Positions 15,682 to 58,700 of a DNA stretch of 64,000 nt are shown in pieces (the stretch's first letter is position 1; each line of letters opens with the position of its first letter). This DNA comes from Eledone cirrhosa. Taxonomy: Eukaryota. The notes beneath the pieces are model-generated. The model was not told the origin of the DNA. It ran no database searches and saw only the letters and a program-made list of their open reading frames with translations. The position numbers and the translations under genes are program-made. The DNA lies in NCBI GenBank assembly GCA_964016885.1, contig CAXHJY010000575.1, positions 1 to 64,000 of the forward strand, in the 5' to 3' direction.

Positions 15682-16025
15682 ACACATCCATGTTAAACCC
15701 TGCACGTGCACACACATATATCTATATATATATATGCGCACACAGAATTCACCACTGTCGGTTGCGGGGCCTAATCTACATGAAGAACTCGATGTGATCA
15801 GAATGACTTGTATTTTAATTTCACTGTCCCAACTTCTTATATTATGGAAAAAATATATGTGTATGTATGTATATATATATATATTTGGAGGCCATTTCTC
15901 TGTGTGTGGGTGTATGTATGTGTATATGTGTGTGTGTGTGTATGTGTGTGCATGTGGATGTATGTATTGTGTGTGCGTGTGTGTGTGTGTGTATGTATGT
16001 GTGTATTTGGATGTATGCGTATGTG

Positions 16026-16056
<31 letters not shown>

Positions 16057-16148
16057 ATATATGTGTGTGTATGTGTATATATATGTGTGTGTGTGTGTAT
16101 GTTTGTATGTGTGTATGTATATATATGTGTGTGTGTATGTATGTGTGG

Positions 16149-16188
<40 letters not shown>

Positions 16189-16251
16189 ATATATATATGT
16201 GTGTGTGTGTGTATGTATGTGTGTATCTGGATGTATGTGTATGTATATATA

Positions 16252-16294
<43 letters not shown>

Positions 16295-16757
16295 ATGTGT
16301 ATATATGTGTGTGTGTGTATGTGTGTATGTATATGTATGTGTGTGTGTATGTATGTGTGTATATGTATATATATATATATATACGTATATGTGGATGTAT
16401 ATGTATATGTATGTATGTGTGGATGAAGGTATGTGTGTATATATAGGTGTAAGTGCACTAAATCCCTTTCTATCACGCTCCACTCTCCTACCCACCACAG
16501 GAAGATATATGTATGTAATTGCTTCCACCCCCTCACTGATCAGGAGCTGGCCAGTTGGCCATTGCTAAATCTGACCTTTATAAAATAACCCACACCCCAA
16601 ATAACTTCTCATTCACTACCAGAAAGGGACACAGCAGTCAACTTGTTGTTGCTACCTAGATGAAAACTACTATGAAATCCCACAATGAATTTTATACTTG
16701 AATTTTCAAATCTCAAATTTTAACTCTTCGTATTATTAATTTTTATTAATATTAATC

Positions 16758-16805
16758 AACATTTGAAAAGATGGTTTTTGCAGACCCATCGAAACCGGTC
16801 ATTTT
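16758..16805 (+). ncRNA. Minimal hammerhead, U3-A8 core variant, in 5' pLTR
   Basis: TTGAAAA, stem II GATGG/CCATC, GAAA, palindromic ACCGGT, then C (GUC site at 16800). Stem I is weak (AACAT/ATTTT). Confidence 0.55.
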
Positions 16806-16976
16806 TTATACTCTTTATTATTTCCTTACCTTATAAAATTATATGTTTTTTCACAAAAAAGTATTCTGTCGCTTATATATTCCATGTGCCATTACCAACC
16901 TCAATTTTCTCTATAACCTTCGTTTTGTGTAGAAAATTACACTTTTCATATATACTAACCTACGCAAATCCGGAAA

Positions 16977-19900
16977 ATGGCACTGGAACAAGACAACACA
17001 ACTTCAAACTCCAATATAAATGAGGAAATCCTGAAAATCCTAAAAGAGATAAATGGAAAACTCACCATTCTGACAAAAAAAAACAGGATATACCCCCAAA
17101 CCACCACACCGACTGACAACCAAATTTATTTAAACTTTCAAAACGTATGCAACTCCATCGAAAAACTTATGAATACCAACACAGAACAAACGACATTGCT
17201 CCATATCAAAAACCAAATGGGACACCTCTGGAAAAAACATCTAAAAACCAGAAAATTCACTTTCTGAAATATGATAAAAAACCTCAACAAAGCTGGAATT
17301 TACCAAAAATGGATTAACTCAACACCGATAGTTTTACCACGTAAATTCCAAATAAAGCATATTACAAACGAACCTGAACCAGAAAGAAAACTCCGTGAAC
17401 AAATGTCACTCAACAGGATAAACATGGAAATAGAACTCCTAAAATTAAGGGCCACCTCAAACGAGCAAGAGTATAAGGATACTGATAAAAATATGGAGGA
17501 AGAATGCACTAAAAAGGCCGAGGGAACAACCCTACAAAATTTAATCAAATCGTGGAAACAGGACTGCGAGAATGCAGAAATTATTTCCCTTAAACGGTGG
17601 GAAAAATCCGAAAACTGGTTCCTCAAATATGAAGGAGACTTTAAAAGGACGCACCAAATAGGTAACCCCTTTTTTAAGCATTTGAACATAACAAGAACTA
17701 CAACAGACACATTTACACCACCAAACCCAACACACACTAACCACAGGCACATCCCCCACCAACACAAACCAAATACGGCTAACTACACCAAAAGAAACAC
17801 ACCCAACCACCACAACACAGGTTTCCGTAGAAATGCCCCCTACATAAACCAACGACGAAATAACATAGATCCAACTCACAACACACACACCACATTCCCC
17901 AGAAGAAATCCACCCAGACCACTTGAAATCACAACAGAACTTACCCACAACCACACCAGACATCACCCTCAATCCAACAAAAGACAACCCCCCAAACTCA
18001 ACACTCTGTACCACAGAAATAACGCACCCAGACCACATGAACCAACAACAGAACCCTTGCTCATCAACAACCACAACACATACCACCCCCACCATCACAT
18101 TCACCCTCATGAAACAACAAGCTACAGACCCACACGCAACAGACCAACAAAATATAATCACACACAAAACTACATTCCTTTTTTAGGGAAAAGCCTGAAA
18201 TACCAGGATACTCGATGCCCCCCCCCCCCCCCCCAGGAGAAACCAAAAATAATCAACCTCTCAAAGACACCTCTAACCAACACACAAATCAACATTTTAA
18301 GTAAGGGCCTGAAATTTACACCTACACCACGTAAACCAAACTTCCCCGAAATGAAGGATGACATCATGGAATACTGCCGAAAGCTGCGACTAACGGAATT
18401 CTTCCACAACGACACCAACACTGAAGTCGAATCACTGGTTAGAAATAAAAGCAATTTCTGCCCACAAAAGGGAAGAAATAAAGCACTGGACACGTACTGC
18501 GAACACATCACCAACTTTCCCTATGAAAAAATTACAAATAAACACACGAAATCAAACCTATCTACACACGAATGGGAAGAATTATTCACACTTAGAAACA
18601 ACCCTGAGATAACTATCAAAGAAGCCGATAAAGGCAGTACTGTTGTCATTATGAATACGGACTACTATAGGACCCTCGCACTTAACATTTTAGAAAACAA
18701 CACATACTATGAAAAAACAGAAAACTACAAACACACCAAAACAATGGGGAACCTTTTGACCTTACTGAATAAATACCGCAACAGCTTAACCACAAAAGAG
18801 TTTAACTATATAAGCCACTTCAAATGCAATACAAGCTCTTTTTACGGCTTACCGAAACTCCACAAATGTAAACCCATAAACGATGCATGTGACACCTCAA
18901 CCAACAATTACATTGAACTAACACCACCAGAAGACCTAAAACTCAGGCCAATTATAGCAGGCCCTACATGTGAAACCCACAGACTTAGCAACTTTCTGGA
19001 CATCCTACTGAAACCCTTTCTACAACATATACAGAGCTACATACGAGATGACCTTGACATGCTGAAACACCTCCCTAAAACAGTAAGTGCAAATACAATT
19101 CTTGTCTCCTTTGACGTAATAAACCTCTACACAAACATACCCCACAACTATGGAATAACAGCAGTCCAATACTGGCTTAACACACACCCATCAGAAATAC
19201 CGACACGCATCAACACAGATTTTATCACTGACGGACTCCACTTTATCCTACAAAATAACTACTTCACATTCAATGGTTCAACATATAGACAAGTATCAGG
19301 TACGGCAATGGGCACGAAAGTAGCACCCACATATGCCAACCTAGTCATGGGATTCCATGAACAACAAATATACAGTCAATCCCTTCTCTTATTTGGAGAC
19401 TCTTTCCACACACACCTCAAAGCCAATTGGAAAAGACATCTAGACGACTGCTTTATCCTATGGCAAGAAGACATGAACTCACTTACTACGTTTAAAAACA
19501 TGATAAACAACATAGATAATAACATACAATTCACAATGGAATCCAATCCTAAGGAATTAGCCTTCTTGGATATTCTCGTCTCTGTAATAGACGGGAAATT
19601 AGATACAGATATATTCTATAAACCCACAGATTCCAAGCAATACCTCTTTTTCACATCAAGTCACCCAAAACATACAAAATTTAACATTCCTTACAATTTG
19701 GCCAAACGTATATGTACCATAGTATCAGATCCACCTAAACGGGAGCAAAGACTAAAGGAACTAAAAGACACCCTTATCTTAAGAGCCTTTCCACTTGAAA
19801 TAATCAACAATGGAATAGACAGGGCAAAACACCTAAATCCCCATCAACTTAACAATCCAAAACAGAAAACCACACTCAACACCCTGCCATATGTATCCAC

Positions 19901-20498
19901 TTTCAACCCCAGAAATACCGAAATGTTTGATCACCTACACAAAAACCTCCCCATCCTACTTAAAGATGTAAAAATGAAGTCTATTCTTGAAACACACAAG
20001 ATCCTTAAAAGTAAAAGACAACCTAAATCACTTAAACGCATTCTCACTGGACCAAATATACCCAAACCAATCCTCAACCCTACAGTTACCAAATGTGGTA
20101 GAACAAACTGTGGAACGTGCCTCTACCTCACTGAAGGACAAACATTTACATTCAAAGATGGCCAAACATTTACAGTAAAAAACAATTTCACCTGCAACTC
20201 GGAGAACTTGATTTACGCAATAACTTGCGGTGGGTGCAAACACAACTACATAGGACAGACGGGCACCTCATTACGCAAAAGAATGACCATCCACCGCCAA
20301 CAAATCCGGGACGCTAACACAAGAAAAATCCCCTTGAGCAGCCATATTGCGAACTGCGCAGGAATGACACTACCCAACTTTAAAATCTTCCCCTTCTACA
20401 AGTGCTCAGATTCGTTCACACAGCAACAAAGAATAAACAAAGAAAATCTATTCCTTAACAAATTTAAACCAAAACTAAACGGGTTATCACCCCAATAG
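16977..20498 (+). pseudogene. PLE polyprotein: reverse transcriptase + GIY-YIG endonuclease, with one in-frame TGA at 17265-17267
   Basis: Motifs LSKGLKFTPTP, IKEADKGSTVVIM, FYGLPKLHK, LRPII, SFDVINLYTNIP, GTAMGTKVAPTYANL, RHLDD, FLDI, linker CGRTNCGTC, and NLIYAITCGGC..YIGQT..RMTIHR..H. ORFs 16977-17267 and 17271-20498 are in the same frame. Confidence 0.92.
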
Positions 20499-20852
20499 AA
20501 TTGTCATAAAATATAAACACACATACGCACGGAATCACTACTATTAAAGACCAGAGACCAATTCTGTAGAATCAGGTTTATTCGTTGACAGACCATGCCT
20601 TTATGTGACCAACACATCCATGTTAAACCCTGCACGTGCACACACATATATCTATATATATATATGCGCACACAGAATTCACCACTGTCGGTTGCGGGGC
20701 CCAATCTACATGAAGAACTCAATGTGATCAGAATGACTTGTATTTTAATTTCACTGTCCCAACTTCTTATATTATGGAAAAAATATATGTGTGTGTGTGT
20801 GTATGTTTGTATGTGTGTATGTATATATATGTGTGTGTGTATGTATGTGTGG

Positions 20853-20886
<34 letters not shown>

Positions 20887-21075
20887 GTGTATATATATAT
20901 GTGTGTGTGTGTGTATGTATGTGTGTATCTGGATGTACATATGTGTATGTATATATATGTGTGTGTGTGTATATATAAATATATATATATATATACATGT
21001 GTGTGTATGTGTATATATGTGTATATATATATGTGTGTGTGTATGTATATGTATGTGTGTGTGTATGTATGTGTG

Positions 21076-21116
<41 letters not shown>

Positions 21117-21485
21117 GTGGATGTATATGTATATGTATGTATGTGTGGATGAAGGTATGTGTGTATATATAGGTGTAAGTGCACTAAATCCCTTTCTATC
21201 ACGCTCCACTCTCCTACCCACCACAGGAAGATATATGTATGTATATTGCTTCCAACCCCTCACTGACCGGCAGCTGGCCAGTTGGCCATTGCTAAATCTG
21301 ACTTTTATAAAATAACCCACACCCCAAATAACTTCTCATTCACTACCAGAAAGGGACACAGCAGTCAACTTGTTGTTGCTACCTAGATGAAAACTACTAT
21401 GAAATCCCACAATGAATGTTATACTTGAATTTTCAACTCTCAAATTTTTAACTCTTCGTATTATTAATTTTTCTTAATATTAATC

Positions 21486-21533
21486 AACATTTGAAAAGAT
21501 GGCTTTTGCAGACCCATCGAAACCGGTCATTTT
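21486..21533 (+). ncRNA. Minimal hammerhead, U3-A8 core variant, in 3' pLTR
   Basis: Same motif as 16758-16805. Confidence 0.55.
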
Positions 21534-21665
21534 TTATACCCTTTATTATTTCCTTACCTTATAAAATTATATGTTTTTTCACAAAAAAGTATTCTGTCTC
21601 TTATATATTCCATGTGCCATTACCAACCTCAATTTTCTCTCTCTATATATATATATATAATATAT

Positions 21666-24580: not shown

Positions 24581-24620
24581 AATATGGTTTTATAAATATA
24601 GTTTCCATTTATTTAATATC

Positions 24621-24680
<60 letters not shown>

Positions 24681-24807
24681 TATATATAATATATATATAT
24701 ATATATAATATATATATATATATAATATATATATATAATATATATATATAATATATATATATATAATATATATAGATATATATATATAATATATATATAT
24801 ATATATA

Positions 24808-28704: not shown

Positions 28705-29164
28705 ATGGAAAGTTATATTTAAATTGTTGGGTTACTACTAGTAAATATTTATAACTGATATAAAAGCACTCGACAAGTATTTGGAGTATATTTACAATAT
28801 TAAATAAATGGAAACTATATTATAAACCATATTTATTTCATTATATATATTTCAGGGATATCATATTAACAATATGCTATGCCTTCCTCAGACAAAATAC
28901 AATATAAACAGTTTTATAGATAAATAGATTCGATATACCGTAACAACATCGACTTGTATTTTGAAAAGGTTGATTTGGCAGATCAACCTTTTCAAATACA
29001 AGTCACGATGTTGTTACGGTATGTCGAATCTATTTATCTATAAAACTGGTTTATATTCTATTTTGTCTGAGGAAGGCATAGCATATTGTAATATGATATC
29101 CCTGAAATATATATAATGAAATAAATATGGTTTTATAAATATAGTTTCCATTTATTTAATATTG

Positions 29165-29165
<1 letters not shown>
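28705..29165. mobile_element. Short family C pLTR palindrome with two hammerheads
   Basis: Arms ~28793-28973 and ~28982-29165. HHR at 28834-28899 (-) and 29059-29123 (+). Tail 28705-28792 equals 21898-21985. Confidence 0.85.
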
Positions 29166-29202
<37 letters not shown>

Positions 29203-29238
29203 TATATAATATATATATATTATATATAATATATATAA

Positions 29239-29298
<60 letters not shown>

Positions 29299-29421
29299 TA
29301 AATATATATATATATATAATATATATATATATAATATATATATATATAATATATATATATATATAATATATATATATATAATATATATATATATAATATA
29401 TATATATAATATATATATATG

Positions 29422-29463
<42 letters not shown>

Positions 29464-29464
29464 T

Positions 29465-29545
<81 letters not shown>

Positions 29546-29640
29546 ATATATATATAATATATATAATATATATATATATATAATATATATATATATATGT
29601 AATATAATATATATATATATATAATATAATATATATATAT

Positions 29641-30248
29641 TCGTATGCATATATATATATTCATATGCATACTAGTATTTCAGTATACATATGTGGATGT
29701 ACATTTTTAACTTAATTGTTTAAGCGTCAGTCATACAAAAGTGAGTTACAAACGAAGCGAAATTTAATTTCGTTTCGTTATTTGTTTTTATCGTCTCCGT
29801 TGAACCGGTACGTACTCACGCTCTATGCAAATTAGTCTGCCCACTACTAATTTTCATAGAAAAAGCATATAACGATATGTGCTTTTACGATTCTCTAGAA
29901 AGGCCGGAAGATAGGTAAATATTGCTGATGAGTTGTAACAACAACGAAACTAGTTCAATATTCCTTGTCTGGCTTTCTGGAGAATAGAGGAAAGGTGTTT
30001 CCTCAAAAACCAGTATGACTCTAAAAACCGGTTTGTCTGTGTGTTTACATACAGAATAGCTGGACACTCACAGTAAAGTGACCAGTGAAAAACTCGGTAC
30101 ATCTACATATGTATACGTGTGTGTATTCATATGCATACTAGTATTTCAGTATACATATGTGGATGTACATTTTTAACTTAATTGTTTAAGCGTCAGTCAT
30201 ACAAAAGTGAGTTACAAACGAAACGAAATTTAATTTCGTTTCGTTATT

Positions 30249-30256
<8 letters not shown>
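29641..30256 (+). mobile_element. Solo ~1.3-unit copy of the 463-bp hammerhead repeat (retrozyme-like), flanked by (TA)n
   Basis: Homologous to the array unit at 40789-60017. About 130 bp of terminal redundancy (29660-29790 repeated at 30126-30256). Confidence 0.9.
29918..29962 (+). ncRNA. Minimal type I hammerhead ribozyme
   Basis: AATATTG-CTGATGA-GTTGT AACA ACAAC-GAAA-CTAG-TT-CAATATT, with a GUU cleavage triplet. Confidence 0.85.
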
Positions 30257-31854
<1,598 letters not shown>

Positions 31855-32566
31855 ACGAAGGAAATGTGGTAAGGAACCAGGTGGACCATAACGCACCAAA
31901 GTACTCAATACTTGAGGTAGTAGAGTGGGTAATAGGAACCAGTAAGACCCCGACAGCTGAGCTCAAGCCGTTTCGACGGCTAATTCTGGACTAAATGAAA
32001 ATTTATCCTGGTATTTAAATAGCCGATCTTCTCAAGGGGTAATTCCATATATGGTCAAAGTGATTGTCAAAAATCAGTAGTAATTCTGTGGTTGCAAATT
32101 AGTAGGGGAGATGGTGGCTAAACCTGCCAGTAGGAGAAAGAGGGGAGGGGGTGGAGTAGACCCAATCAAACGTTGGTAGTGCCAGCTACAGCTGGGCATG
32201 AGGTCAAAGAAGATACAGGGGAGGGGGAGGGGGACGAAGTCGGAACGGTAGGTAGAACAATGGGGGGTAGAAATATATATTTCTACCCCCCATGACCTCA
32301 TGCCCAGCTGTAGCTGGCACTACCAACGCTTGATTGGGTCTACACCACCTCCTCCCCTCTTTCTCCTACTGGCAGGTTTAGCCACCATCTCCCCTACTAA
32401 TTTGCAACCACAGAATTACTACTGATTTTTGACAATCACTTTGACCATATATGGAATTACCCCTTGAGAAGATCGGCTATTTAAATACCAGGATAAATTT
32501 TCATTTAGTCCAGAATTAGCCGTCGAAACGGCTTGAGCTCGGCTGTCGGGGTCTTACTGGTTCCTA
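31855..32566. mobile_element. Fold-back pLTR-like element (family D) with hammerhead on each arm
   Basis: Arms 31933-32206 and 32293-32566, an inner mini-palindrome at 32260-32292, and a one-sided tail at 31855-31932. Confidence 0.8.
32459..32552 (+). ncRNA. Type I hammerhead, U3-A8 core variant (mirror copy at 31947-32040, minus strand)
   Basis: Stem I ACCCC/GGGGT; core TTGAGAA; stem II GA(T)CGGCTA/TAGCCGTC; GAAA; stem III CGGCT/GGCTG; GUC site at 32547. Confidence 0.7.
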
Positions 32567-33491: not shown

Positions 33492-34570
<1,079 letters not shown>

Positions 34571-40788: not shown

Positions 40789-43700
40789 TAAAACTCGGTA
40801 CATCTACATATGTACACGTGTGTGTATTCATATGCATACTAATATTTCAGTATACATATGTGGATGTACATTTTTAACTTAATTGTTTAAGCGTCAGTCA
40901 TACAAAAGTGAGTTACAAACGAAGCGAAATTTAATTTCGTTTCGTTATTTGTTTTTATCGTCTCCGCTGAACCGGTACGTACTCACGCTCTATGCAAATT
41001 AGTCTGCCCACTACTAATTATCATAGAAAAAGCATATAACGATATGTGCTTTTACGATTCTCTAGAAAGGCCGGAATAGGTAAATATTGCTGATGAGATG
41101 TAACAACATCGAAACTAGTCCAATATTCCTGTCTAGCTTTCTGGAGAATAGAGGAAAGGTGTTTCCTCGAAAACCAGTATGACTATAAAAACCGGTTTGT
41201 CTGTGTGTTTACATACAGAATAGCTGAACACTCACAGTAAAGTGTCCAGTGAAAAACTCGGTACATCTACATATGTACACGTGTGTGTATTCATATGCAT
41301 ACTAATATTTCAGTATACATATGTGGATGTACATTTTAACTTAATTGTTTAAGCGTCAGTCATACAAAAGTGAGTTACAAACGAAGCGAAATTTAATTTC
41401 GTTTCGTTATTTGTTTTTATCGTCTCCGCTGAACCGGTACGTACTCACGCTCTATGCAAATTAGTCTGCCCACTACTAATTTTCATAGAAAAAGCATATA
41501 ACGATATGTGCTTTTACGATTCTCTAGAAAGGCCGGAATAGGTAAATATTGCTGATGAGATGTAATAACATCGAAACTAGTCCAATATTGCTGTCTAGCT
41601 TTCTGGAGAATAGAGGAAAGGTGTTTCCTCGAAAACCAGTATGACTCTAAAAACCGGTTTGTCTGTGTGTTTACATACAGAATAGCTGAACACTCACAGT
41701 AAAGTGTCCAGTGAAAAACTCGGTACATCTACATATGTACACGTGTGTGTATTCATATGCATACTAATATTTCAGTATACATATGTGGATGTACATTTTT
41801 AACTTAATTGTTTAAGCGTCAGTCATACAAAAGTGAGTTACAAACGAAGCGAAATTTAATTTCGTTTCGTTATTTGTTTTTATCGTCTCCGCTGAACCGG
41901 TACGTACTCACGCTCTATGCAAATTAGTCTGCCCACTACTAATTTTCATAGAAAAAGCATATAACGATATGTGCTTTTACGATTCTCTAGAAAGGCCGGA
42001 ATAGGTAAATATTGCTGATGAGATGTAACAACATCGAAACTAGTCCAATATTCCTGTCTAGCTTTCTGGAGAATAGAGGAAAGGTGTTTCCTCGAAAACC
42101 AGTATGACTCTAAAAACCGGTTTGTCTGTGTGTTTACATACAGAATAGCTGAACACTCACAGTAAAGTGTCCAGTGAAAAACTCGGTACATCTACATATG
42201 TACACGTGTGTGTATTCATATGCATACTAATATTTCAGTATACATATGTGGATGTACATTTTTAACTTAATTGTTTAAGCGTCTGTCATACAAAAGTGAG
42301 TTACAAACGAAACGAAATTTAATTTCGTTTCGTTATTTGTTTTTATCGTCTCCGCTGAACCGGTACGTACTCACGCTCTATGCAAATTAATCTGCCCACT
42401 ACTAATTTTAAATAGAAAAAGCATATAACGATATGTGCTTTTACGATTCTCTAGAAACGCCGGAATAGGTAAATATTGCTGATGAGATGTAACAACATCG
42501 AAACTAGTCCAATATTCCTGTCTAGCTTTCTGGAGAATAGAGGAAAGGTGTTTCCTCGAAAACTAGTATGACTCTAAAAACCGGTTTGTCTGTGTGTTTA
42601 CATACAGAATAGCTGAACACTCACAGTAAAGTGTCCAGTGAAAAACTCGGTACATCTACATATGTACACGTGTGTGTATTCATATGCATACTAATATTTC
42701 AGTATACATATGTGGATGTACATTTTTAACTTAATTGTTTAAGCGTCAGTCATACAAAAGTGAGTTACAAACGAAGCGAAATTTAATTTCGTTTCGTTAT
42801 TTGTTTTTATCGTCTCCGCTGAACCGGTACGTACTCACGCTCTATGCAAATTAGTCTGCCCACTACTAATTTTCATAGAAAAAGCATATAACGATATGTG
42901 CTTTTACGATTCTCTAGAAAGGCCGGAATAGGTAAATATTGCTGATGAGATGTAACAACATCGAAACTAGTCCAATATTCCTGTCTAGCTTTCTGGAGAA
43001 TAGAGGAAAGGTGTTTCCTCGAAAACCAGTATGACTCTAAAAACCGGTTTGTCTGTGTGTTTACATACAGAATAGCTGAACACTCACAGTAAAGTGTCCA
43101 GTGAAAAACTCGGTACATCTACATATGTACACGTGTGTGTATTCATATGCATACTAATATTTCAGTATACATATGTGGATGTACATTTTTAACTTAATTG
43201 TTTAAGCGTCAGTCATACAAAAGTGAGTTACAAACGAAGCGAAATTTAATTTCGTTTCGTTATTTGTTTTTATCGTCTCCGCTGAACCGGTACGTACTCA
43301 CGCTCTATGCAAATTAGTCTGCCCACTACTAATTTTCATAGAAAAAGCATATAACGATATGTGCTTTTACGATTCTCTAGAAAGGCCGGAATAGGTAAAT
43401 ATTGCAGATGAGATGTAATAACATCGAAACTAGTCCAATATTCCTGTCTAGCTTTCTGGAGAATAGAGGAAAGGTGTTTCCTCGAAAACCAGTATGACTC
43501 TAAAAACCGGTTTGTCTGTGTGTTTACATACAGAATAGCTGAACACTCACAGTAAAGTGTCCAGTGAAAAACTCGGTACATCTACATATGTACACGTGTG
43601 TGTATTCATATGCATACTAATATTTCAGTATACATATGTGGATGTACATTTTTAACTTAATTGTTTAAGCGTCTGTCATACAAAAGTGAGTTACAAACGA

Positions 43701-46700
43701 AGCGAAATTTAATTTCGTTTCGTTATTTGTTTTTATCGTCTCCGCTGAACCGGTACGTACTCACGCTCTATGCAAATTAGTCTGCCCACTACTAATTTTC
43801 ATAGAAAAAGCATATAACGATATGTGCTTTTACGATTCTCCAGAAAGGCCGGAATAGGTAAATATTGCTGATGAGATGTAACAACATCGAAACTAGTCCA
43901 ATATTCCTGTCTAGCTTTCTGGAGAATAGAGGAAAGGTGTTTCCTCGAAAACCAGTATGACTCTAAAAACCGGTTTGTCTGTGTGTTTACATACAGAATA
44001 GCTGAACACTCACAGTAAAGTGTCCAGTGAAAAACTCGGTACATCTACATATGTACACGTGTGTGTATTCATATGCATACTAATATTTCAGTATACATAT
44101 GTGGATGTACATTTTTAACTTAATTGTTTAAGCGTCAGTCATACAAAAGTGAGTTACAAACGAAGCGAAATTTAATTTCGTTTCGTTATTTGTTTTTATC
44201 GTCTCCGCTGAACCGGTACGTACTCACGCTCTATGCAAATTAGTCTGCCCACTACTAATTTTCATAGAAAAAGCATATAACGATATGTGCTTTTACGATT
44301 CTCTAGAAAGGCCGGAATAGGTAAATATTGCTGATGAGATGTAACATCGAAACTAGTCCAATATTCCTGTCTAGCTTTCTGGAGAATAGAGGAAAGGTGT
44401 TTCCTCGAAAACCAGTATGACTCTAAAAACCGGTTTGTCTGTGTGTTTACATACAGAATAGCTGAACACTCACAGTAAAGTGTCCAGTGAAAAACTCGGT
44501 ACATCTACATATGTACACGTGTGTGTATTCATATGCATACTAATATTTCAGTATACATATGTGGATGTACATTTTTAACTTAATTGTTTAAGCGTCAGTC
44601 ATACAAAAGTGAGTTACAAACGAAGCGAAATTTAATTTCGTTTCGTTATTTGTTTTTATCGTCTCCGCTGAACCGGTACGTACTCACGCTCTATGCAAAT
44701 TAGTCTGCCCACTACTAATTTTCATAGAAAAAGCATATAACGATATGTGCTTTTACGATTCTCTAGAAAGGCCGGAATAGGTAAATATTGCTGATGAGAT
44801 GTAATAACATCGAAACTAGTCCAATATTCCTGTCTAGCTTTCTGGAGAATAGAGGAAAGGTGTTTCCTCGAAAACCAGTATGACTCTAAAAACCGGTTTG
44901 TCTGTGTGTTTACATACAGAATAGCTGAACACTCACAGTAAAGTGTCCAGTGAAAAACTCGGTACATCTACATATGTACACGTGTGTGTATTCATATGCA
45001 TACTAATATTTCAGTATACATATGTGGATGTACATTTTTAACTTAATTGTTTAAGCGTCAGTCATACAAAAGTGAGTTACAAACGAAGCGAAATTTAATT
45101 TCGTTTCGTTATTTGTTTTTATCGTCTCCGCTGAACCGGTACGTACTCACGCTCTATGCAAATTAGTCTGCCCACTACTAATTTTCATAGAAAAAGCATA
45201 TAACGATATGTGCTTTTACGATTCTCTAGAAAGGCCGGAATAGGTAAATATTGCAGATGAGATGTAATAACATCGAAACTAGTCCAATATTCCTGTCTAG
45301 CTTTCTGGAGAATAGAGGAAAGGTGTTTCCTCGAAAACCAGTATGACTCTAAAAACCGGTTTGTCTGTGTGTTTACATACAGAATAGCTGAACACTCACA
45401 GTAAAGTGTCCAGTGAAAAACTCGGTACATCTACATATGTACACGTGTGTGTATTCATATGCATACTAATATTTCAGTATACATATGTGGATGTACATTT
45501 TTAACTTAATTGTTTAAGCGTCAGTCATACAAAAGTGAGTTACAAACGAAGCGAAATTTAATTTCGTTTCGTTATTTGTTTTTATCGTCTCCGCTGAACC
45601 GGTACGTACTCACGCTCTATGCAAATTAGTCTGCCCACTACTAATTTTCATAGAAAAAGCATATAACGATATGTGCTTTTACGATTCTCTAGAAAGGCCG
45701 GAATAGGTAAATATTGCTGATGAGATGTAACAACATCGAAACTAGTCCAATATTCCTGTCTAGCTTTCTGGAGAATAGAGGAAAGGTGTTTCCTCGAAAA
45801 CCAGTATGACTCTAAAAACCGGTTTGTCTGTGTGTTTACATACAGAATAGCTGAACACTCACAGTAAAGTGTCCAGTGAAAAACTCGGTACATCTACATA
45901 TGTACACGTGTGTGTATTCATATGCATACTAATATTTCAGTATACATATGTGGATGTACATTTTTAACTTAATTGTTTAAGCGTCAGTCATACAAAAGTG
46001 AGTTACAAACGAAGCGAAATTTAATTTCGTTTCGTTATTTGTTTTTATCGTCTCCGCTGAACCGGTACGTACTCACGCTCTATGCAAATTAGTCTGCCCA
46101 CTACTAATTTTCATAGAAAAAGCATATAACGATATGTGCTTTTACGATTCTCTAGAAAGGCCGGAATAGGTAAATATTGCTGATGAGATGTAATAACATC
46201 GAAACTAGTCCAATATTCCTGTCTAGCTTTCTGGAGAATAGAGGAAAGGTGTTTCCTCGAAAACCAGTATGACTCTAAAAACCGGTTTGTCTGTGTGTTT
46301 ACATACAGAATAGCTGAACACTCACAGTAAAGTGTCCAGTGAAAAACTCGGTACATCTACATATGTACACGTGTGTGTATTCATATGCATACTAATATTT
46401 CAGTATACATATGTGGATGTACATTTTTAACTTAATTGTTTAAGCGTCTGTTATACAAAAGTGAGTTACAAACGAAGCGAAATTTAATTTCGTTTCGTTA
46501 TTTGTTTTTATCGTCTCCGCTGACCCGGTACGTACTCACGCTCTATGCAAATTAGTCTGCCCACTACTAATTTTCATAGAAAAAGCATATAACGATATGT
46601 GCTTTTACGATTCTCCAGAAAGGCCGGAATAGGTAAATATTGCTGATGAGATGTAACAACATCGAAACTAGTCCAATATTCCTGTCTAGCTTTCTGGAGA

Positions 46701-49700
46701 ATAGAGGAAAGGTGTTTCCTCGAAAACCAGTATGACTCTAAAAACCGGTTTGTCTGTGTGTTTACATACAGAATAGCTGAACACTCACAGTAAAGTGTCC
46801 AGTGAAAAACTCGGTACATCTACATATGTACACGTGTGTGTATTCATATGCATACTAATATTTCAGTATACTTATGTGGATGTACATTTTTAACTTAATT
46901 GTTTAAGCGTCAGTCATACAAAAGTGAGTTACAAACGAAGCGAAATTTAATTTCGTTTCGTTATTTGTTTTTATCGTCTCCGCTGAACCGGTACGTACTC
47001 ACGCTCTATGCAAATTAGTCTGCCAACTACTCATTTTCATAGAAAAAGCATATAACGATATGTGCTTTTACTATTCTCCAGAAAGGCCGGAATAGGTAAA
47101 TATTGCTGATGAGATGTAACAACATCGAAACTAGTCCAATATTCCTGTCTAGCTTTCTGGAGAATAGAGGAAAGGTGTTTCCTCGAAAACCAGTATGACT
47201 CTAAAAACCGGTTTGTCTGTGTGTTTACATACAGAATAGCTGAACACTCACAGTAAAGTGTCCAGTGAAAAACTCGGTACATCTACATATGTACACGTGT
47301 GTGTATTCATATGCATACTAATATTTCAGTATACATATGTGGATGTACATTTTTAACTTAATTGTTTAAGCGTCAGTCATACAAAAGTGAGTTACAAACG
47401 AAGCGAAATTTAATTTCGTTTCGTTATTTGTTTTTATCGTCTCCGCTGAACCGGTACGTACTCACGCTCTATGCAAATTAGTCTGCCCACTACTAATTTT
47501 CATAGAAAAAGCATATAACGATATGTGCTTTTACGATTCTCTAGAAAGGCCGGAATAGGTAAATATTGCTGATGAGATGTAACAACATCGAAACTAGTCC
47601 AATATTCCTGTCTAGCTTTCTGGAGAATAGAGGAAAGGTGTTTCCTCGAAAACCAGTATGACTCTAAAAACCGGTTTGTCTGTGTGTTTACATACAGAAT
47701 AGCTGAACACTCACAGTAAAGTGTCCAGTGAAAAACTCGGTACATCTACATATGTACACGTGTGTGTATTCATATGCATACTAATATTTCAGTATACATA
47801 TGTGGATGTACATTTTTAACTTAATTGTTTAAGCGTCAGTCATACAAAAGTGAGTTACAAACGAAGCGAAATTTAATTTCGTTTCGTTATTTGTTTTTAT
47901 CGTCTCCGCTGAACCGGTACGTACTCACGCTCTATGCAAATTAGTCTCCCACTACTAATTTTCATAGAAAAAGCATATAACGATATGTGCTTTTACGATT
48001 CTCTAGAAAGGCCGGAATAGGTAAATATTGCTGATGAGATGTAATAACATCGAAACTAGTCCAATATTCCTGTCTAGCTTTCTGGAGAATAGAGGAAAGG
48101 TGTTTCCTCGAAAACCAGTATGACTCTAAAAACCGGTTTGTCTGTGTGTTTACATACAGAATAGCTGAACACTCACAGTAAAGTGTCCAGTGAAAAACTC
48201 GGTACATCTACATATGTACACGTGTGTGTATTCATATGCATACTAATATTTCAGTATACATATGTGGATGTACATTTTTAACTTAATTGTTTAAGCGTCT
48301 GTTATACAAAAGTGAGTTACAAACGAAGCGAAATTTAATTTCGTTTCGTTATTTGTTTTTATCGTCTCCGCTGACCCGGTACGTACTCACGCTCTATGCA
48401 AATTAGTCTGCCCACTACTAATTTTCATAGAAAAAGCATATAACGATACGTGCTTTTACGATTCTCCAGAAAGGCCGGAATAGGTAAATATTGCTGATGA
48501 GATGTAACAACATCGAAACTAGTCCAATATTCCTGTCTAGCTTTCTGGAGAATAGAGGAAAGGTGTTTCCTCGAAAACCAGTATGACTCTAAAAACCGGT
48601 TTGTCTGTGTGTTTACATACAGAATAGCTGAACACTCACAGTAAAGTGTCCAGTGAAAAACTCGGTACATCTACATATGTACACGTGTGTGTATTCATAT
48701 GCATACTAATATTTCAGTATACATATGTGGATGTACATTTTTAACTTAATTGTTTAAGCGTCAGTCATACAAAAGTGAGTTACAAACGAAGCGAAATTTA
48801 ATTTCGTTTCGTTATTTGTTTTTATCGTCTCCGCTGAACCGGTACGTACTCACGCTCTATGCAAATTAGTCTGCCCACTACTAATTTTCATAGAAAAAGC
48901 ATATAACGATATGTGCTTTTACGATTCTCTAGAAAGGCCGGAATAGGTAAATATTGCTGATGAGATGTAACAACATCGAAACTAGTCCAATATTCCTGTC
49001 TAGCTTTCTGGAGAATAGAGGAAAGGTGTTTCCTCGAAAACCAGTATGACTCTAAAAACCGGTTTGTCTGTGTGTTTACATACAGAATAGCTGAACACTC
49101 ACAGTAAAGTGTCCAGTGAAAAACTCGGTACATCTACATATGTACACGTGTGTGTATTCATATGCATACTAATATTTCAGTATACATATGTGGATGTACA
49201 TTTTTAACTTAATTGTTTAAGCGTCAGTCATACAAAAGTGAGTTACAAACGAAGCGAAATTTAATTTCGTTTCGTTATTTGTTTTTATCGTCTCCGCTGA
49301 ACCGGTACGTACTCACGCTCTATGCAAATTAGTCTCCCACTACTAATTTTCATAGAAAAAGCATATAACGATATGTGCTTTTACGATTCTCTAGAAAGGC
49401 CGGAATAGGTAAATATTGCTGATGAGATGTAATAACATCGAAACTAGTCCAATATTCCTGTCTAGCTTTCTGGAGAATAGAGGAAAGGTGTTTCCTCGAA
49501 AACCAGTATGACTCTAAAAACCGGTTTGTCTGTGTGTTTACATACAGAATAGCTGAACACTCACAGTAAAGTGTCCAGTGAAAAACTCGGTACATCTACA
49601 TATGTACACGTGTGTGTATTCATATGCATACTAATATTTCAGTATACATATGTGGATGTACATTTTTAACTTAATTGTTTAAGCGTCTGTTATACAAAAG

Positions 49701-52700
49701 TGAGTTACAAACGAAGCGAAATTTAATTTCGTTTCGTTATTTGTTTTTATCGTCTCCGCTGACCCGGTACGTACTCACGCTCTATGCAAATTAGTCTGCC
49801 CACTACTAATTTTCATAGAAAAAGCTTATAACGATACGTGCTTTTACGATTCTCCAGAAAGGCCGGAATAGGTAAATATTGCTGATGAGATGTAACAACA
49901 TCGAAACTAGTCCAATATTCCTGTCTAGCTTTCTGGAGAATAGAGGAAAGGTGTTTCCTCGAAAACCAGTATGACTCTAAAAACCGGTTTGTCTGTGTGT
50001 TTACATACAGAATAGCTGAACACTCACAGTAAAGTGTCCAGTGAAAAACTCGGTACATCTACATATGTACACGTGTGTGTATTCATATGCATACTAATAT
50101 TTCAGTATACATATGTGGATGTACATTTTTAACTTAATTGTTTAAGCGTCAGTCATACAAAAGTGAGTTACAAACGAAGCGAAATTTAATTTCGTTTCGT
50201 TATTTGTTTTTATCGTCTCCGCTGAACCGGTACGTACTCACGCTCTATGCAAATTAGTCTGCCCACTACTAATTTTCATAGAAAAAGCATATAACGATAT
50301 GTGCTTTTACGATTCTCTAGAAAGGCCGGAATAGGTAAATATTGCTGATGAGATGTAATAACATCGAAACTAGTCCAATATTCCTGTCTAGCTTTCTGGA
50401 GAATAGAGGAAAGGTGTTTCCTCGAAAACCAGTATGACTCTAAAAACCGGTTTGTCTGTGTGTTTACATACAGAATAGCTGAACACTCACAGTAAAGTGT
50501 CCAGTGAAAAACTCGGTACATCTACATATGTACACGTGTGTGTATTCATATGCATACTAATATTTCAGTATACATATGTGGATGTACATTTTTAACTTAA
50601 TTGTTTAAGCGTCTGTTATACAAAAGTGAGTTACAAACGAAGCGAAATTTAATTTCGTTTCGTTATTTGTTTTTATCGTCTCCGCTGACCCGGTACGTAC
50701 TCACGCTCTATGCAAATTAGTCTGCCCACTACTAATTTTCATAGAAAAAGCATATAACGATATGTGCTTTTACGATTCTCCAGAAAGGCCGGAATAGGTA
50801 AATATTGCTGATGAGATGTAACAACATCGAAACTAGTCCAATATTCCTGTCTAGCTTTCTGGAGAATAGAGGAAAAGTGTTTCCTCGAAAACCAGTATGA
50901 CTCTAAAAACCGGTTTGTCTGTGTGTTTACATACAGAATAGCTGAACACTCACAGTAAAGTGTCCAGTGAAAAACTCGGTACATCTACATATGTACACGT
51001 GTGTGTATTCATATGCATACTAATATTTCAGTATACATATGTGGATGTACATTTTTAACTTAATTGTTTAAGCGTCTGTCATACAAAAGTGAGTTACAAA
51101 CGAAGCGAAATTTAATTTCGTTTCGTTATTTGTTTTTATCGTCTCCGCTGAACCGGTACGTACTCACGTTCTATGCAAATTAGTCTGCCCACTACTAATT
51201 TTCATAGAAAAAGCATATAACGATATGTGCTTTTACGATTCTCCAGAAAGGCCGGAATAGGTAAATATTGCTGATGAGATGTAACAACATCGAAACTAGT
51301 CCAATATTCCTGTCTAGCTTTCTGGAGAATAGAGGAAAGGTGTTTCCTCGAAAACCAGTATGACTCTAAAAACCGGTTTGTCTGTGTGTTTACATACAGA
51401 ATAGCTGAACACTCACAGTAAAGTGTCCAGTGAAAAACTCGGTACATCTACATATGTACACGTGTATGTATTCATATGCATACTAATATTTCAGTATACA
51501 TATGTGGATGTACATTTTTAACTTAATTGTTTAAGCGTCAGTCATACAAAAGTGAGTTACAAACGAAGCGAAATTTAATTTCGTTTCGTTATTTGTTTTT
51601 ATTGTCTCCGCTGAACCGGTACGTACTCACGCTCTATGCAAATTAGTCTGCCCACTACTAATTTTCATAGAAAAAGCATATAACGATATGTGCTTTTACG
51701 ATTCTCTAGAAAGGCCGGAATAGGTAAATATTGCTGATGAGATGTAACAACATCGAAACTAGTCCAATATTCCTGTCTAGCTTTCTGGAGAATAGAGGAA
51801 AGGTGTTTCCTCGAAAACCAGTATGACTCTAAAAACCGGTTTGTCTGTGTGTTTACATACAGAATAGCTGAACACTCACAGTAAAGTGTCCAGTGAAAAA
51901 CTCGGTACATCTACATATGTACACGTGTGTGTATTCATATGCATACTAATATTTCAGTATACTTATGTGGATGTACATTTTTAACTTAATTGTTTAAGCG
52001 TCAGTCATACAAAAGTGAGTTACAAACGAAGCGAAATTTAATTTCGTTTCGTTATTTGTTTTTATCGTCTCCGCTGAACCGGTACGTACTCACGCTCTAT
52101 GCAAATTAGTCTGCCAACTACTCATTTTCATAGGCCGGAATAGGTAAATATTGCTGATGAGATGTAACAACATCGAAACTAGTCCAATATTCCTGTCTAG
52201 CTTTCTGGAGAATAGAGGAAAGGTGTTTCCTCGAAAACCAGTATGACTCTAAAAACCGGTTTGTCTGTGTGTTTACATACAGAATAGCTGAACACTCACA
52301 GTAAAGTGTCCAGTGAAAAACTCGGTACATCTACATATGTACACGTGTGTGTATTCATATGCATACTAATATTTCAGTATACATATGTGGATGTACATTT
52401 TTAACTTAATTGTTTAAGCGTCAGTCATACAAAAGTGAGTTACAAACGAAGCGAAATTTAATTTCGTTTCGTTATTTGTTTTTATCGTCTCCGCTGAACC
52501 GGTACGTACTCACGCTCTATGCAAATTAGTCTGCCCACTACTAATTTTCATAGAAAAAGCATATAACGATATGTGCTTTTACGATTCTCTAGAAAGGCCG
52601 GAATAGGTAAATATTGCTGATGAGATGTAACAACATCGAAACTAGTCCAATATTCCTGTCTAGCTTTCTGGAGAATAGAGGAAAGGTGTTTCCTCGAAAA

Positions 52701-55700
52701 CCAGTATGACTCTAAAAACCGGTTTGTCTGTGTGTTTACATACAGAATAGCTGAACACTCACAGTAAAGTGTCCAGTGAAAAACTCGGTACATCTACATA
52801 TGTACACGTGTGTGTATTCATATGCATACTAATATTTCAGTATACATATGTGGATGTACATTTTTAACTTAATTGTTTAAGCGTCAGTCATACAAAAGTG
52901 AGTTACAAACGAAGCGAAATTTAATTTCGTTTCGTTATTTGTTTTTATCGTCTCCGCTGAACCGGTACGTACTCACGCTCTATGCAAATTAGTCTGCCCA
53001 CTACTAATTTTCATAGAAAAAGCATATAACGATATGTGCTTTTACGATTCTCTAGAAAGGCCGGAATAGGTAAATATTGCTGATGAGATGTAACAACATC
53101 GAAACTAGTCCAATATTCCTGTCTAGCTTTCTGGAGAATAGAGGAAAGGTGTTTCCTCGAAAACCAGTATGACTCTAAAAACCGGTTTGTCTGTGTGTTT
53201 ACATACAGAATAGCTGAACACTCACAGTAAAGTGTCCAGTGAAAAACTCGGTACATCTACATATGTACACGTGTGTGTATTCATATGCATACTAATATTT
53301 CAGTATACATATGTGGATGTACATTTTTAACTTAATTGTTTAAGCGTCAGTCATACAAAAGTGAGTTACAAACGAAGCGAAATTTAATTTCGTTTCGTTA
53401 TTTGTTTTTATCGTCTCCGCTGAACCGGTACGTACTCACGCTCTATGCAAATTAGTCTGCCCACTACTAATTTTCATAGAAAAAGCATATAACGATATGT
53501 GCTTTTACGATTCTCTAGAAAGGCCGGAATAGGTAAATATTGCTGATGAGATGTAACAACATCGAAACTAGTCCAATATTCCTGTCTAGCTTTCTGGAGA
53601 ATAGAGGAAAGGTGTTTCCTCGAAAACCAGTATGACTCTAAAAACCGGTTTGTCTGTTTGTTTACATACAGAATAGCTGAACACTCACAGTAAAGTGTCC
53701 AGTGAAAAACTCGGTACATCTACATATGTACACGTGTGTGTATTCATATGCATACTAATATTTCAGTATACATATGTGGATGTACATTTTTAACTTAATT
53801 GTTTAAACATCAGTCATACAAAAGTGAGTTACAAACGAAGCGAAATTTAATTTCGTTTCGTTATTTGTTTTTATCGTCTACGCTGAACCGGTACGTACTC
53901 ACGCTCTATGCAAATTAGTCTGCCCACTACTAATTTTCATAGAAAAAGCATATAACGATATGTGCTTTTACGATTCTCTAGAAAGGCCGGAATAGGTAAA
54001 TATTGCTGATGAGATGTAACAACATCGAAACTAGTCCAATATTCCTGTCTAGCTTTCTGGATAATAGAGGAAAGGTGTTTCCTCGAAAACTAGTATGACT
54101 CTAAAAACCGATTTGTCTGTGTGTTTACATACAGAATAGCTGAACACTCACAGTAAAGTGTCCAGTGAAAAACTCGGTACATCTACATATGTACACGTGT
54201 GTGTATTCATATGCATACTAATATTTCAGTATACATATGTGGATGTACATTTTTAACTTAATTGTTTAAGCGTCAGTCATACAAAAGTGAGTTACAAACG
54301 AAGCAAAATTTAATTTCGTTTCGTTATTTGTTTTTATCGTCTCCGCTGAACCGGTACGTACTCACGCTCTATGCAAATTAGTCTGCCCACTACTAATTTT
54401 CATAGAAAAAGCATATAACGATATGTGCTTTTACGATTCTCTAGAAAGGCCGGAATAGGTAAATATTGCTGATGAGATGTAACAACATCGAAGCTAGTCC
54501 AATATTCCTGTCTAGCTTTCTGGAGAATAGAGGAAAGGTGTTTCCTCGAAAACCAGTATGACTCTAAAAACCGGTTTGTCTGTGTGTTTACATACAGAAT
54601 AGCTGAACACTCACAGTAAAGTGTCCAGTGAAAAACTCGGTACATCTACATATGTACACATGTGTGTATTCATATGCATACTAATATTTCAGTATACATA
54701 TGTGGATGTACATTTTTAACTTAATTGTTTAAGCGTCAGTCATACAAAAGTGAGTTACAAACGAAGCGAAATTTAATTTCGTTTCGTTATTTGTTTTTAT
54801 CGTCTCCGCTGAACCGGTACGTACTCACGCTCTATGCAAATTAGTCTGCCCACTACTAATTTTCATAGAAAAAGCATATAACGTTATGTGCTTTTACGAT
54901 TCTCTAGAAAGGCCGGAATAGGTAAATATTGCTGATGAGATGTAACAACATCGAAACTAGTCCAATATTCCTGTCTAGCTTTCTGGAGAATAGAGGAAAG
55001 GTGTTTCCTCGAAAATCAGTATGACTCTAAAAACCGGTTTGTCTGTGTGTTTACATACAGAATAGCTGAACACTCACAGTAAAGTGTCCAGTGAAAAACT
55101 CGGTACATCTACATATGTACACGTGTGTGTATTCATATGCATACTAATATTTCAGTATACATATGTGGATGTACATTTTTAACTTAATTGTTTAAGCGTC
55201 TGTCATACAAAAGTGAGTTACAAACGAAGCGAAATTTAATTTCGTTTCGTTATTTGTTTTTATCGTCTCCGCTTAACCGGTACGTACTCACGCTCTATGC
55301 AAATTAGTCTGCCCACTACTAATTTTCATAGAAAAAGCATATAACGATATGTGCTTTTACGATTCTCTAGAAAGGCCGGAATAGGTAAATATTGCTGATG
55401 AGATGTAACAACATCGAAACTAGTCCAATATTCCTGTCTAGCTTTCTGGAGAATAGAGGAAAGGTGTTTCCTCGAAAACGAGTATGACTCTAAAAACCGG
55501 TTTGTCTGTGTGTTTACATACAGAATAGCTGAACACTCACAGTAAAGTGTCCAGTGAAAAACTCGGTACATCTACATATGTACACGTGTGTGTATTCATA
55601 TGCATACTAATATTTCAGTATACATATGTGGATGTACATTTTTAACTTAATTGTTTAAGCGTCAGTCATACAAAAGTGAGTTACAAACGAAGCGAAATTT

Positions 55701-58700
55701 AATTTCGTTTCGTTATTTGTTTTTATCGTCTCCGCTGAACCGGTACGTACTCACGCTCTATGCAAATTAGTCTGCCCACTACTAATTTTCATAGAAAAAG
55801 CATATAACGATATGTGCTTTTACGATTCTCTAGAAAGGCCGGAATAGGTAAATATTGCTGATGAGATGTAACAACATCGAAACTAGTCCAATATTCCTGT
55901 CTAGCTTTCTGGAGAATAGAGGAAAGGTGTTTCCTCGAAAACCAGTATGACTCTAAAAACCGGTTTGTCTGTGTGTTTACATACAGAATAGCTGAACACT
56001 CACAGTAAAGTTCCAGTGAAAAACTCGGTACATCTACATATGTACACGTGTGTGTATTCATATGCATACTAATATTTCAGTATACATATGTGGATGTACA
56101 TTTTTAACTTAATTGTTTAAGCGTCTGTCATACAAAAGTGAGTTACAAACGAAGCGAAATTTAATTTCGTTTCGTTATTTGTTTTTATCGTCTCCGCTGA
56201 ACCGATACGTACTCACGCTCTATGCAAATTAGTCTGCCCACTACTAATTTTCATAGAAAAAGCATATAACGATATGTACTTTTACGATTCTCTAGAAAGG
56301 CCGGAATAGGTAAATATTGCTGATGAGATGTAACAACATCGAAACTAGTCCCAATATTCCTGTCTAGCTTTCTGGAGAATAGAGGAAAGGTGTTTCCTCG
56401 AAAACCAGTATGACTCTAAAAACCGGTTTGTCTGTTTGTTTACATACAGAATAGCTGAACACTCACAGTAAAGTGTCCAGTGAAAAACTCGGTACATCTA
56501 CATATGTACACGTGTGTGTATTCATATGCATACTAATATTTCAGTATACATATGTGGATGTACATTTTTAACTTAATTGTTTAAGCGTCAGTCATACAAA
56601 AGTGAGTTACAAACGAAGCGAAATTTAATTTCGTTTCGTTATTTGTTTTTATCGTCTCCGCTTAACCGGTACGTACTCACGCTCTATGCAAATTAGTCTG
56701 CCCACTACTAATTTTCATAGAAAAAGCATATAACGATATGTGCTTTTACGATTCTCTAGAAAGGCCGGAATAGGTAAATATTGCTGATGAGATGTAACAA
56801 CATCGAAACTAGTCCAATATTCCTGTCTAGCTTTCTGGAGAATAGAGGAAAGGTGTTTCCTCGAAAACGAGTATGACTCTAAAAACCGGTTTGTCTGTGT
56901 GTTTACATACAGAATAGCTGAACACTCACAGTAAAGTGTCCAGTGAAAAACTCGGTACATCTACATATGTACACGTGTGTGTATTCATATGCATACTAAT
57001 ATTTCAGTATACATATGTGGATGTACATTTTTAACTTAATTGTTTAAGCGTCAGTCATACAAAAGTGAGTTACAAACGAAGCGAAATTTAATTTCGTTTC
57101 GTTATTTGTTTTCATCGTCTCCGCTGAACCGCTACGTACTCACGCTCTATGCAAATTAGTCTGCCCACTACTAATTTTCATAGAAAAAGCATATAACGAT
57201 ATGTGCTTTTACGATTCTCTAGAAAGGCCGGAATAGGTAAATATTGCTGATGAGATGTAACAACATCGAAACTAGTCCAATATTCCTGTCTAGCTTTCTG
57301 GAGAATAGAGGAAAGGTGTTTCCTCGAAAACCAGTATGACTCTAAAAACCGGTTTGTCTGTGTGTTTACATACAGAATAGCTGAACACTCACAGTAAAGT
57401 GTCCAGTGAAAAACTCGGTACATCTACATATGTACACGTGTGTGTATTCATATGCATACTAATATTTCAGTATACATATGTGGATGTACATTTTTAACTT
57501 AATTGTTTAAGCGTCAGTCATACAAAAGTGAGTTACAAACGAAGCGAAATTTATTTTCGTTTCGTTATTTGTTTTCATCATCTCCGCTGAACCGGTACGT
57601 ACTCACGCTCTATGCAAATTAGTCTGCCCACTACTAATTTTCATAGAAAAAGCATATAACGATATGTGCTTTTACGATTCTCTAGAAAGGCCGGAATAGG
57701 TAAATATTGCTGATGAGATGTAACAACATCGAAACTAGTCCAATATTCCTGTCTAGCTTTCTGGAGAATAGAGGAAAGGTGTTTCCTCGAAAACCAGTAT
57801 GACTCTAAAAACCGGTTTGTCTGTGTGTTTACATACAGAATAGCTGAACACTCACAGTAAAGTGTCCAGTGAAAAACTCGGTACATCTACATATGTACAC
57901 GTGTGTGTATTCATATGCATACTAATATTTCAGTATACATATGTGGATGTACATTTTTAACTTAATTGTTTAAGCGTCAGTCATACAAAAGTGAGTTACA
58001 AACGAAGCGAAATTTATTTTCGTTTCGTTATTTGTTTTCATCATCTCCGCTGAACCGGTACGTACTCACGCTCTATGCAAATTAGTCTGCCCACTACTAA
58101 TTTTCATAGAAAAAGCATATAACGATATGTGCTTTTACGATTCTCTAGAAAGGCCGAAATAGGTAAATATTGCTGATGAGATGTAACAACATCGAAACTA
58201 GTCCAATATTCCTGTCTAGCTTTCTGGAGAATAGAGGAAAGGTGTTTCCTCGAAAACCAGTATGACTTTAAAAACCGGTTTGTCTGTGTGTTTACATACA
58301 GAATAGCTGAACACTCACGGTAAAGTGTCCAGTGAAAAACTCGGTACATCTACATATGTACACGTGTGTGTATTCATATGCATACTAATATTTCAGTATA
58401 CATATGTGGATGTACATTTTTAACTTAATTGTTTAAGCGTCAGTCATACAAATGTGAGTTACAAACGAAGCAAAATTTAATTTCGTTTCGTTATTTGTTT
58501 TTATCGTCTACGCTGAACCGGTACGTACTCACGCTCTATGCAAATTAATCTGCCCACTACTAATTTTCATAGAAAAAGCATATAACGATATGTGCTTTTA
58601 CGATTCTCTAGAAAGGCCGGAATAGGTAAATATTGCTGATGAGATGTAACAACATCGAAACTAGTCCAATATTCCTGTCTAGCTTTCTTGAGAATAGAGG

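Follow-up and report, generated by a model that had tools for sequence, protein, structure and literature searches.

Two tandem-repeat insertions in the window, that is, the entire 64-kb unplaced contig analysed here, which is rich in (TA)n and simple repeats and belongs to a 3.0-Gb genome, bear on two questions: which enzyme moves animal retrozymes, and how the inverted arms and the one-sided tail of PLEs originate. The mobiliser of retrozymes has been described as unknown, with PLEs as a strong candidate (PMC7229834). In the available text of a preprint, PLE mobilisation is argued from shared hammerheads, co-occurrence and pLTR homology, with no end mapping (Li, Clavereau & Pollet 2026, bioRxiv 10.64898/2026.07.22.740005). 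A literature search with subscription papers and older Penelope work outside its scope found no study that mapped retrozyme ends or counted tail pairing.

A non-coding retrozyme with two insertions in the window

Features of the two insertions, in window coordinates:
29165..29641, no strand: left (TA)n target run of the solo copy
29640..29659, + strand: 5′ junction of the solo copy, a 10-nt partial duplicate of its 5′ end plus (TA)5
29660..30256, + strand: one-armed solo retrozyme copy of ∼1.28 units (unit ∼170–463 plus 1–300), with its 3′ end at site A
29825..29832, + strand: octamer-like ATGCAAAT, unit 335–342, common to both retrozyme families
29918..29962, + strand: type I hammerhead of the solo copy (core from 29925, predicted cut after 29955, GUU, palindromic 2-bp helix III)
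30097..30168, + strand: long stem-loop, ending 13–18 nt ahead of site B
30171..30188, + strand: site B, unit 227–232, the 3′ end of other copies and internal in the solo copy
30217..30245, + strand: hairpin within the ∼70-nt tail between B and A
30242..30256, + strand: site A, the 3′ end joined to (TA)n in the solo copy
30257..31855, no strand: right (TA)n target run of the solo copy
40790..60017, + strand: retrozyme array of 41.5 units, starting at unit position 133 and ending at site A (unit 297), with (TA)n on both flanks
59862..60017, + strand: end of the array, rearranged by a 151-nt jump-back and a deletion in the hairpin, with no second occurrence in the genome

Unit positions are counted from the first base past the predicted hammerhead cut (window 41583). 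The array has a repeat period of 463 nt with 99% matches and a GC content of 0.36. No ORF was found in the unit, the sole stop-to-stop frame in the array being 95 aa long, and it has neither an LTR, PBS or PPT nor the RT and GIY-YIG ORF of an autonomous PLE. As a tandem, non-coding unit of a few hundred nucleotides with a type I hammerhead, it is classified from its sequence as a non-autonomous non-LTR retrozyme, with predicted RNA forms and cleavage.

The type I core was found in 40 array and solo copies of the window, and an Rfam scan returned no family at gathering score. The sequence-only reading had described the solo copy as terminally redundant and reading through an intact hammerhead; the redundancy is there (∼130 nt), and the ribozyme is a subfamily variant, in which GUU replaces GUC and helix II contains a compensatory pair. 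Across seven sequences of the main and sister families, 89.8% of the cells are paired (26–52% in slid controls) and 7 of 14 pairs are changed on both sides, although the support from covariation is only moderate because the seven sequences really represent two lineages. Helix III consists of 2 bp with a palindromic loop, and hammerheads with such a short, palindromic-loop helix III have been reported to require dimeric folding (PMC4209133). Old hammerhead relics at scattered loci (L226–L233) have the same palindromic helix III and a covarying helix II, with no tandem units. Type I hammerheads of a different family, with a long helix II, are located at 34656 (− strand), 36275 (+) and 37181 (+) in the element at 34580–37357, and at L043. 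Of 238 main-family units, most retain the octamer-like ATGCAAAT (the commonest 12-mer occurs in 224), and so does the sister family; it is possibly an internal promoter element and a candidate counterpart of the promoter octamer of newt satellite 2.

The starting observation for this locus, a 3′ end common to the solo copy and the array, holds: both stop at CGTTATTTGTTT adjoining (TA)n (unit 297–300, ∼300 nt past the cut). The site is the same but the ends are not identical, as they lie 3 nt apart and the solo copy retains TTA ahead of the TA run, which the array does not. The 5′ ends differ, as had been noted (unit ∼170 in the solo copy and 133 in the array). The hairpin that was said to lie just before the end in both copies is absent from the terminal copy of the array, which lacks 23 nt of it and comes after a 151-nt jump-back. 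This hairpin-deleted form has a single match genome-wide, which rules out hairpin skipping as a frequent event, and its read-through version has none. Elsewhere in the array, the unit at 51712–52132 carries a 43-nt deletion.

Two fixed 3′ ends adjoining TA repeats

The 3′ ends were mapped in 69 insertions from two samples: all 38 places visible among 150 listed of 244 matches to the full unit, and the complete set of 31 insertions represented in the first 100 listed hits, out of 4,468, of a 22-mer located within the unit upstream of A and B. These insertions have 118 visible 3′ ends, with 56 at site A (unit 294–303), 54 at a second site, B (223–234), and 8 elsewhere; 110 of the 118 ends are therefore located in two intervals that together cover 22 of the 463 unit positions. 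End scoring was scripted, except for L053 and L187, which were classed manually. Site A corresponds to unit ∼297–301 and site B to ∼227–233, 70 nt upstream of A, and (TA)n adjoins both. TA-rich DNA lies next to 104 of the 108 script-scored A/B ends, which is the microsatellite or AT-rich setting of PLE-mobilised elements. The junctions hold the TA register, and element and target have 1–3 nt in common. Direct target-site duplications of 46 and 52 bp were found at L188 and L190 and one of 35 bp at L161; otherwise they are hidden in TA.

Genome-wide, exact forward-strand junctions with (TA)5 numbered 1,144 for A and 524 for B, against 1 and 1 for the controls, and the control junctions at the ribozyme cut site and at unit ∼390 were present at 2 places each. 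The site-A end is thus not due to chance, given 1,144 junctions against 2 + 2 control places. Together with 7,328 exact read-through matches at site A, these junctions describe dispersed retrotransposed copies. The reverse-strand junction counts were inflated through overlapping matches, and the A:B ratio varies with the patterns chosen. In short-read data, 12 contigs of run X1 break into TA at 41883, which is site A, and one opposite-strand joint is present in two raw-read runs; other pile-ups (RAD-seq) at AATT, probably restriction ends, were left out.

The clustering of 3′ ends and the (TA)n flanks that the sequence-only reading predicted were thus found, as were variable 5′ ends, scattered among the 69 insertions mapped. 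Its proposal that reverse transcription into (TA)n is target-primed and starts internally, well away from the ribozyme site and by a PLE-like logic, is supported by the mapped ends. Its one fixed internal end is real as site A and incomplete, as B, ∼70 nt away, and the head-to-head A/B architecture described below, the most informative feature, had been missed. Judged from their DNA, the fixed A/B ends with TA flanks give the retrozyme an insertion footprint like that of a PLE.

Strict pairing of A and B in head-to-head insertions

Two arms arranged head-to-head, i.e. 5′-truncated partial tandems with an inverted 5′ arm as in PLE-mobilised elements, make up 51 of the 69 insertions. Both outer ends are visible in 49 of them (L055 and L068 were excluded from pairing because the second end lies beyond the examined stretch), and these comprise 41 A/B, 5 A/other and 3 B/other insertions, with no A/A and no B/B. 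All 41 insertions with both ends at A or B are therefore A/B, with a probability of about 5 × 10−13 under 50:50 pairing. The result is a two-site, one-sided tail like that of PLEs, although its length is ∼70 nt and not 30–40 nt. The remaining 18 insertions are one-armed (9 A and 9 B), and an inverted mini-A arm of 10–12 nt is present on at least 2 of them. Since the (TA)n target is symmetric and the A/B pairing strict, we infer that the asymmetry must come from the RNA–protein complex. Start sites that are paired yet unequal at either end of the target would then be expected.

The two arms of an insertion are independent in length and in their 5′ ends. Among the 41 A/B insertions, 21 have their longer arm on the A side and 20 on the B side (Spearman 0.03), and paired 5′ ends lie within 35 nt of each other in 7 of 41 (6.3 expected). 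Arms exceed one unit in 52 of 82 cases, which supports copying past one full unit as earlier proposed, and no 5′ end is located at +1 of the ribozyme cut (16 of 117 starts are nearby, against about 18 expected). Fold-back or self-priming of the first cDNA or of antisense RNA, as suggested for PLEs (PMC3846280), and L1-type twin priming on one linear RNA are highly improbable sources of the inverted arm on these data. The unit is hairpin-rich and a few inversion points coincide at a hairpin (unit 261/261 twice and 261/265 once), but neither arm is consistently the shorter one, both exceed one unit in 15 of 41 insertions, the two 5′ ends are not adjacent, and 3 of 41 A-arm 5′ ends fall near B (2.3 expected), without the clustering there that twin priming needs. 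As general routes, simple fold-back and L1-type twin priming are largely refuted by the independent arms and 5′ ends.

It is scarcely credible that artefacts of assembly or library preparation gave rise to the palindromes and fixed ends. The window is an unplaced 64-kb contig rich in simple repeats, with an array terminus that is odd and unique, but the arms are asymmetric, unequal and ∼0.7% diverged, they are found on large contigs, and the A junction and one opposite-strand joint are seen in independent short-read runs.

A single start at A, with B generated when the endonuclease trims back one arm at the resolution step, an origin put forward for the PLE tail (PMC8557442), would likewise yield strictly one-sided tails. 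Site B includes AATT, and the anole PLE protein prefers ATT (PMC11167929). Against trimming, the TA-register micro-variants found at A junctions recur at B junctions, a variable (CT)n stutter that looks like priming slippage is present at the short end of the PLE in the window, and both tail borders are RT starts in vitro (PMC11167929). We consider trimming an unlikely source of B.

Stems ahead of the two sites and the RNA template

Both sites are located 3′ of stems, B 13–18 nt past the long stem and A 8–12 nt past the hairpin (z −7.7), and the sister family retains both stems despite its other sequence. The hairpin is a candidate RT recognition signal, but a longer stem precedes B, and the DNA of the terminal array copy is without the hairpin.

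Arms belonging to one insertion resemble each other more closely than they resemble those of other insertions (mean rank 0.12, n = 39), and they diverge by ∼0.7%. At L063 and L186, both arms contain common unit-specific variants that are in register from the outer ends (4/10,970 vs 8/83,399 cells), which tentatively suggests one heterogeneous multimer with both starts in one unit. L041 does not fit this pattern, and gene conversion could mimic it. Also against it, the units of L061 are near-identical, as a monomer circle would give. Higher-order repeats inside arrays comprise 9 units at L225 (the whole array), 6 at J69 (L034/L035), 5 at L041 and 4 at L069; these periods of 4–9 units fit either multimeric circles or later local duplication. 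In run X4, labelled as another organism, a 495-nt contig spans nearly the whole unit with few differences.

The same pairing in a sister retrozyme and in PLEs of the genome

A sister retrozyme with a 434-nt unit (851 + 861 hammerhead matches), homologous to the main unit throughout, uses the aligned sites: all 7 clean two-armed loci among the 20 examined are A/B (L214 and L215 were ambiguous and left out, and L206 and L217 are not members). The left junction of L177 has an 18-nt inverted mini-arm like the A end of the sister family, facing a main-family B arm, a possible mixed insertion that would speak against one RNA as the source of both arms.

PLEs and other elements of the window:
15684..21645, + strand: Neptune/Nematis-type PLE, ORF 17268–20498 with RT and C-terminal GIY-YIG, direct pLTRs, short site on (TA)n
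8757–14630, 21897–24621, 28707–29164, 31856–32564 and 32918–33498: other head-to-head elements bounded by (TA)n, one arm ∼65–135 nt longer at its outer end
38130–40372: 5′-truncated fragment of another PLE family, ORF 38369–39301 with a GIY-YIG-like C-terminus
24612–27700, − strand: broken LINE fragment with endonuclease and RT matches, between TA runs

The translated ORF of the Neptune-type PLE contains a CX4CXXC linker, within the CX2-5CXXC form, and a GIY-YIG-like motif. Its relatives bear PF00078 and PF01541, and no solved structure matched the protein. The endonuclease domain is identical in 150 of 150 scored copies of this PLE, in a genome with >20,000 PLE candidates. Its two ends lie 36 nt apart and are paired long/short in 10 of 10 two-armed loci among the 38 examined. 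A second young PLE, with a palindromic-loop hammerhead, has a 58-nt tail and the same pairing in the 1 locus examined, and the five other head-to-head elements of the window show the same one-sided tail in further families. In the fragment at 38130–40372, the left arm comprises hardly more than the tail of ∼100 nt, after which comes a stutter repeat of 15 nt. At the short end of the Neptune-type PLE, a variable (CT)n run often precedes (TA)n (L133, L140, L143, L153, L155, L159 and others), which is reminiscent of telomerase-style, reiterative copying at the start of synthesis. The family of the 38130–40372 fragment also contributes an inverted long-end arm (14958–15683) that adjoins the Neptune-type element at 15684; since the latter terminates at its short site, the joint represents either a chimeric long/short insertion made from two RNAs or the simple nesting of one element in another.

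No pLTR homology to the unit was found in three PLE families and nine hammerhead variants, in a genome with more than 20,000 candidates. The PLE of the window, the second young PLE and the third family resemble the unit only in simple repeats. Two near-identical hammerheads 4,226 bp apart proved to mark a higher-order repeat of 9 units in a 470-nt subfamily, and eight singleton hammerheads are old relics with no unit similarity at the hammerhead. The lack of a homologous PLE in this set, the LINE fragment in the window and the 4-, 5-, 6- and 9-unit higher-order repeats of long arrays, which may be local DNA amplification, would suit another TA-targeting retroelement (e.g. the LINE at 24612–27700) or DNA-level satellite spread as the mover. 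However, the retrozyme has no poly(A) or simple-repeat 3′ tail of its own, its ends are internal to the tandem unit, PLEs in this genome leave a matching head-to-head footprint with two sites, and DNA-level spread accounts for array growth, not for fixed ends. Such a mover is very unlikely.

Proposed insertion mechanism and relation to known systems

In PMC11167929, a PLE protein is reported to cut and extend both strands, with two internal starts bounding the tail, uncleaved RNA and a predicted dimer; the bulk in vitro data in this report give start sites without a strand difference. The PLE tail is described as 30–40 bp long, frequently at one end only and ascribed to endonuclease resolution, in elements with a (TA)n bias that include the non-autonomous MRC1 (PMC8557442). 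Elsewhere the tail is optional on one inverted pLTR and the head-to-head arms are ascribed to self-priming (PMC3846280).

In the reading we favour, and regard as probable, a PLE drives target-primed reverse transcription that begins at both ends of the cut target and copies uncleaved retrozyme RNA, multimeric or circular; the two internal starts match the PLE tail borders in vitro (PMC11167929). A PLE RT/GIY-YIG protein would cut both strands of a (TA)n run, and each cut end would prime cDNA internally on retrozyme RNA via 1–3 nt of U/UA pairing, with site A used by one end and site B, 70 nt upstream, by the other. Both cDNAs would extend through hammerheads, each for a random length. The two would then be joined head-to-head, or one arm would be lost or tiny, giving one-armed copies, including both in the window. 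If a single RNA serves both starts, the A-primed RT would have to displace the B-primed cDNA. More tentatively, and in our estimate falling a little short of an even chance, every two-armed insertion may be made by one asymmetric PLE complex, in which two coupled RT active sites engage two sites of the same RNA unit, one per cut (TA)n end. Such a complex would explain head-to-head arms and the one-sided PLE tail generally, and retrozymes would hijack it via structure alone, with no pLTR homology.

The retrozyme and PLE classes and the tail are already known. The additions made here are evidence, at the level of insertion ends, that a PLE mobilises a retrozyme, and an A/B rule that is strict and counted and holds with independent arms, which favours priming from both target ends. 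Like metazoan non-LTR retrozymes (PMC7229834; bioRxiv 10.64898/2026.07.22.740005), the element is a non-coding tandem unit of a few hundred nucleotides with low GC and a type I hammerhead, dispersed as monomers to long multimers in a genome that also contains PLEs. Unlike metazoan retrozymes as described in these sources (Cervera & de la Pena 2020, PMC7229834; bioRxiv 10.64898/2026.07.22.740005), the ends themselves, known here from DNA alone, show the PLE tail and head-to-head arms. With EN+ PLEs of the Neptune/Naiad type (PMC8557442, PMC3846280, PMC11167929) it shares partial tandems, an inverted 5′-truncated arm, a one-end tail, the (TA)n bias, two internal RT starts and hammerhead read-through. 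It differs from them as a retrozyme without an ORF, with a ∼70-nt tail, arrays of up to 40+ units and one-sidedness counted in 41/41 cases with independent arms. Chlamys elements such as MRC1 (PMC8557442) are likewise non-coding, multicopy, head-to-tail and microsatellite-associated PLE dependants; as described there, they have no canonical hammerheads and their 3′ ends resemble those of partners, whereas no such partner was found for the retrozyme. Newt satellite 2 (PMC7229834, PMC2220036) is similar in being a hammerhead tandem repeat that needs dimeric folding, and it may contain an internal promoter of the snRNA type. With its RNA unit of 463 nt, its thousands of recent insertions and the young, intact PLEs that share its genome, the retrozyme offers a compact experimental system.
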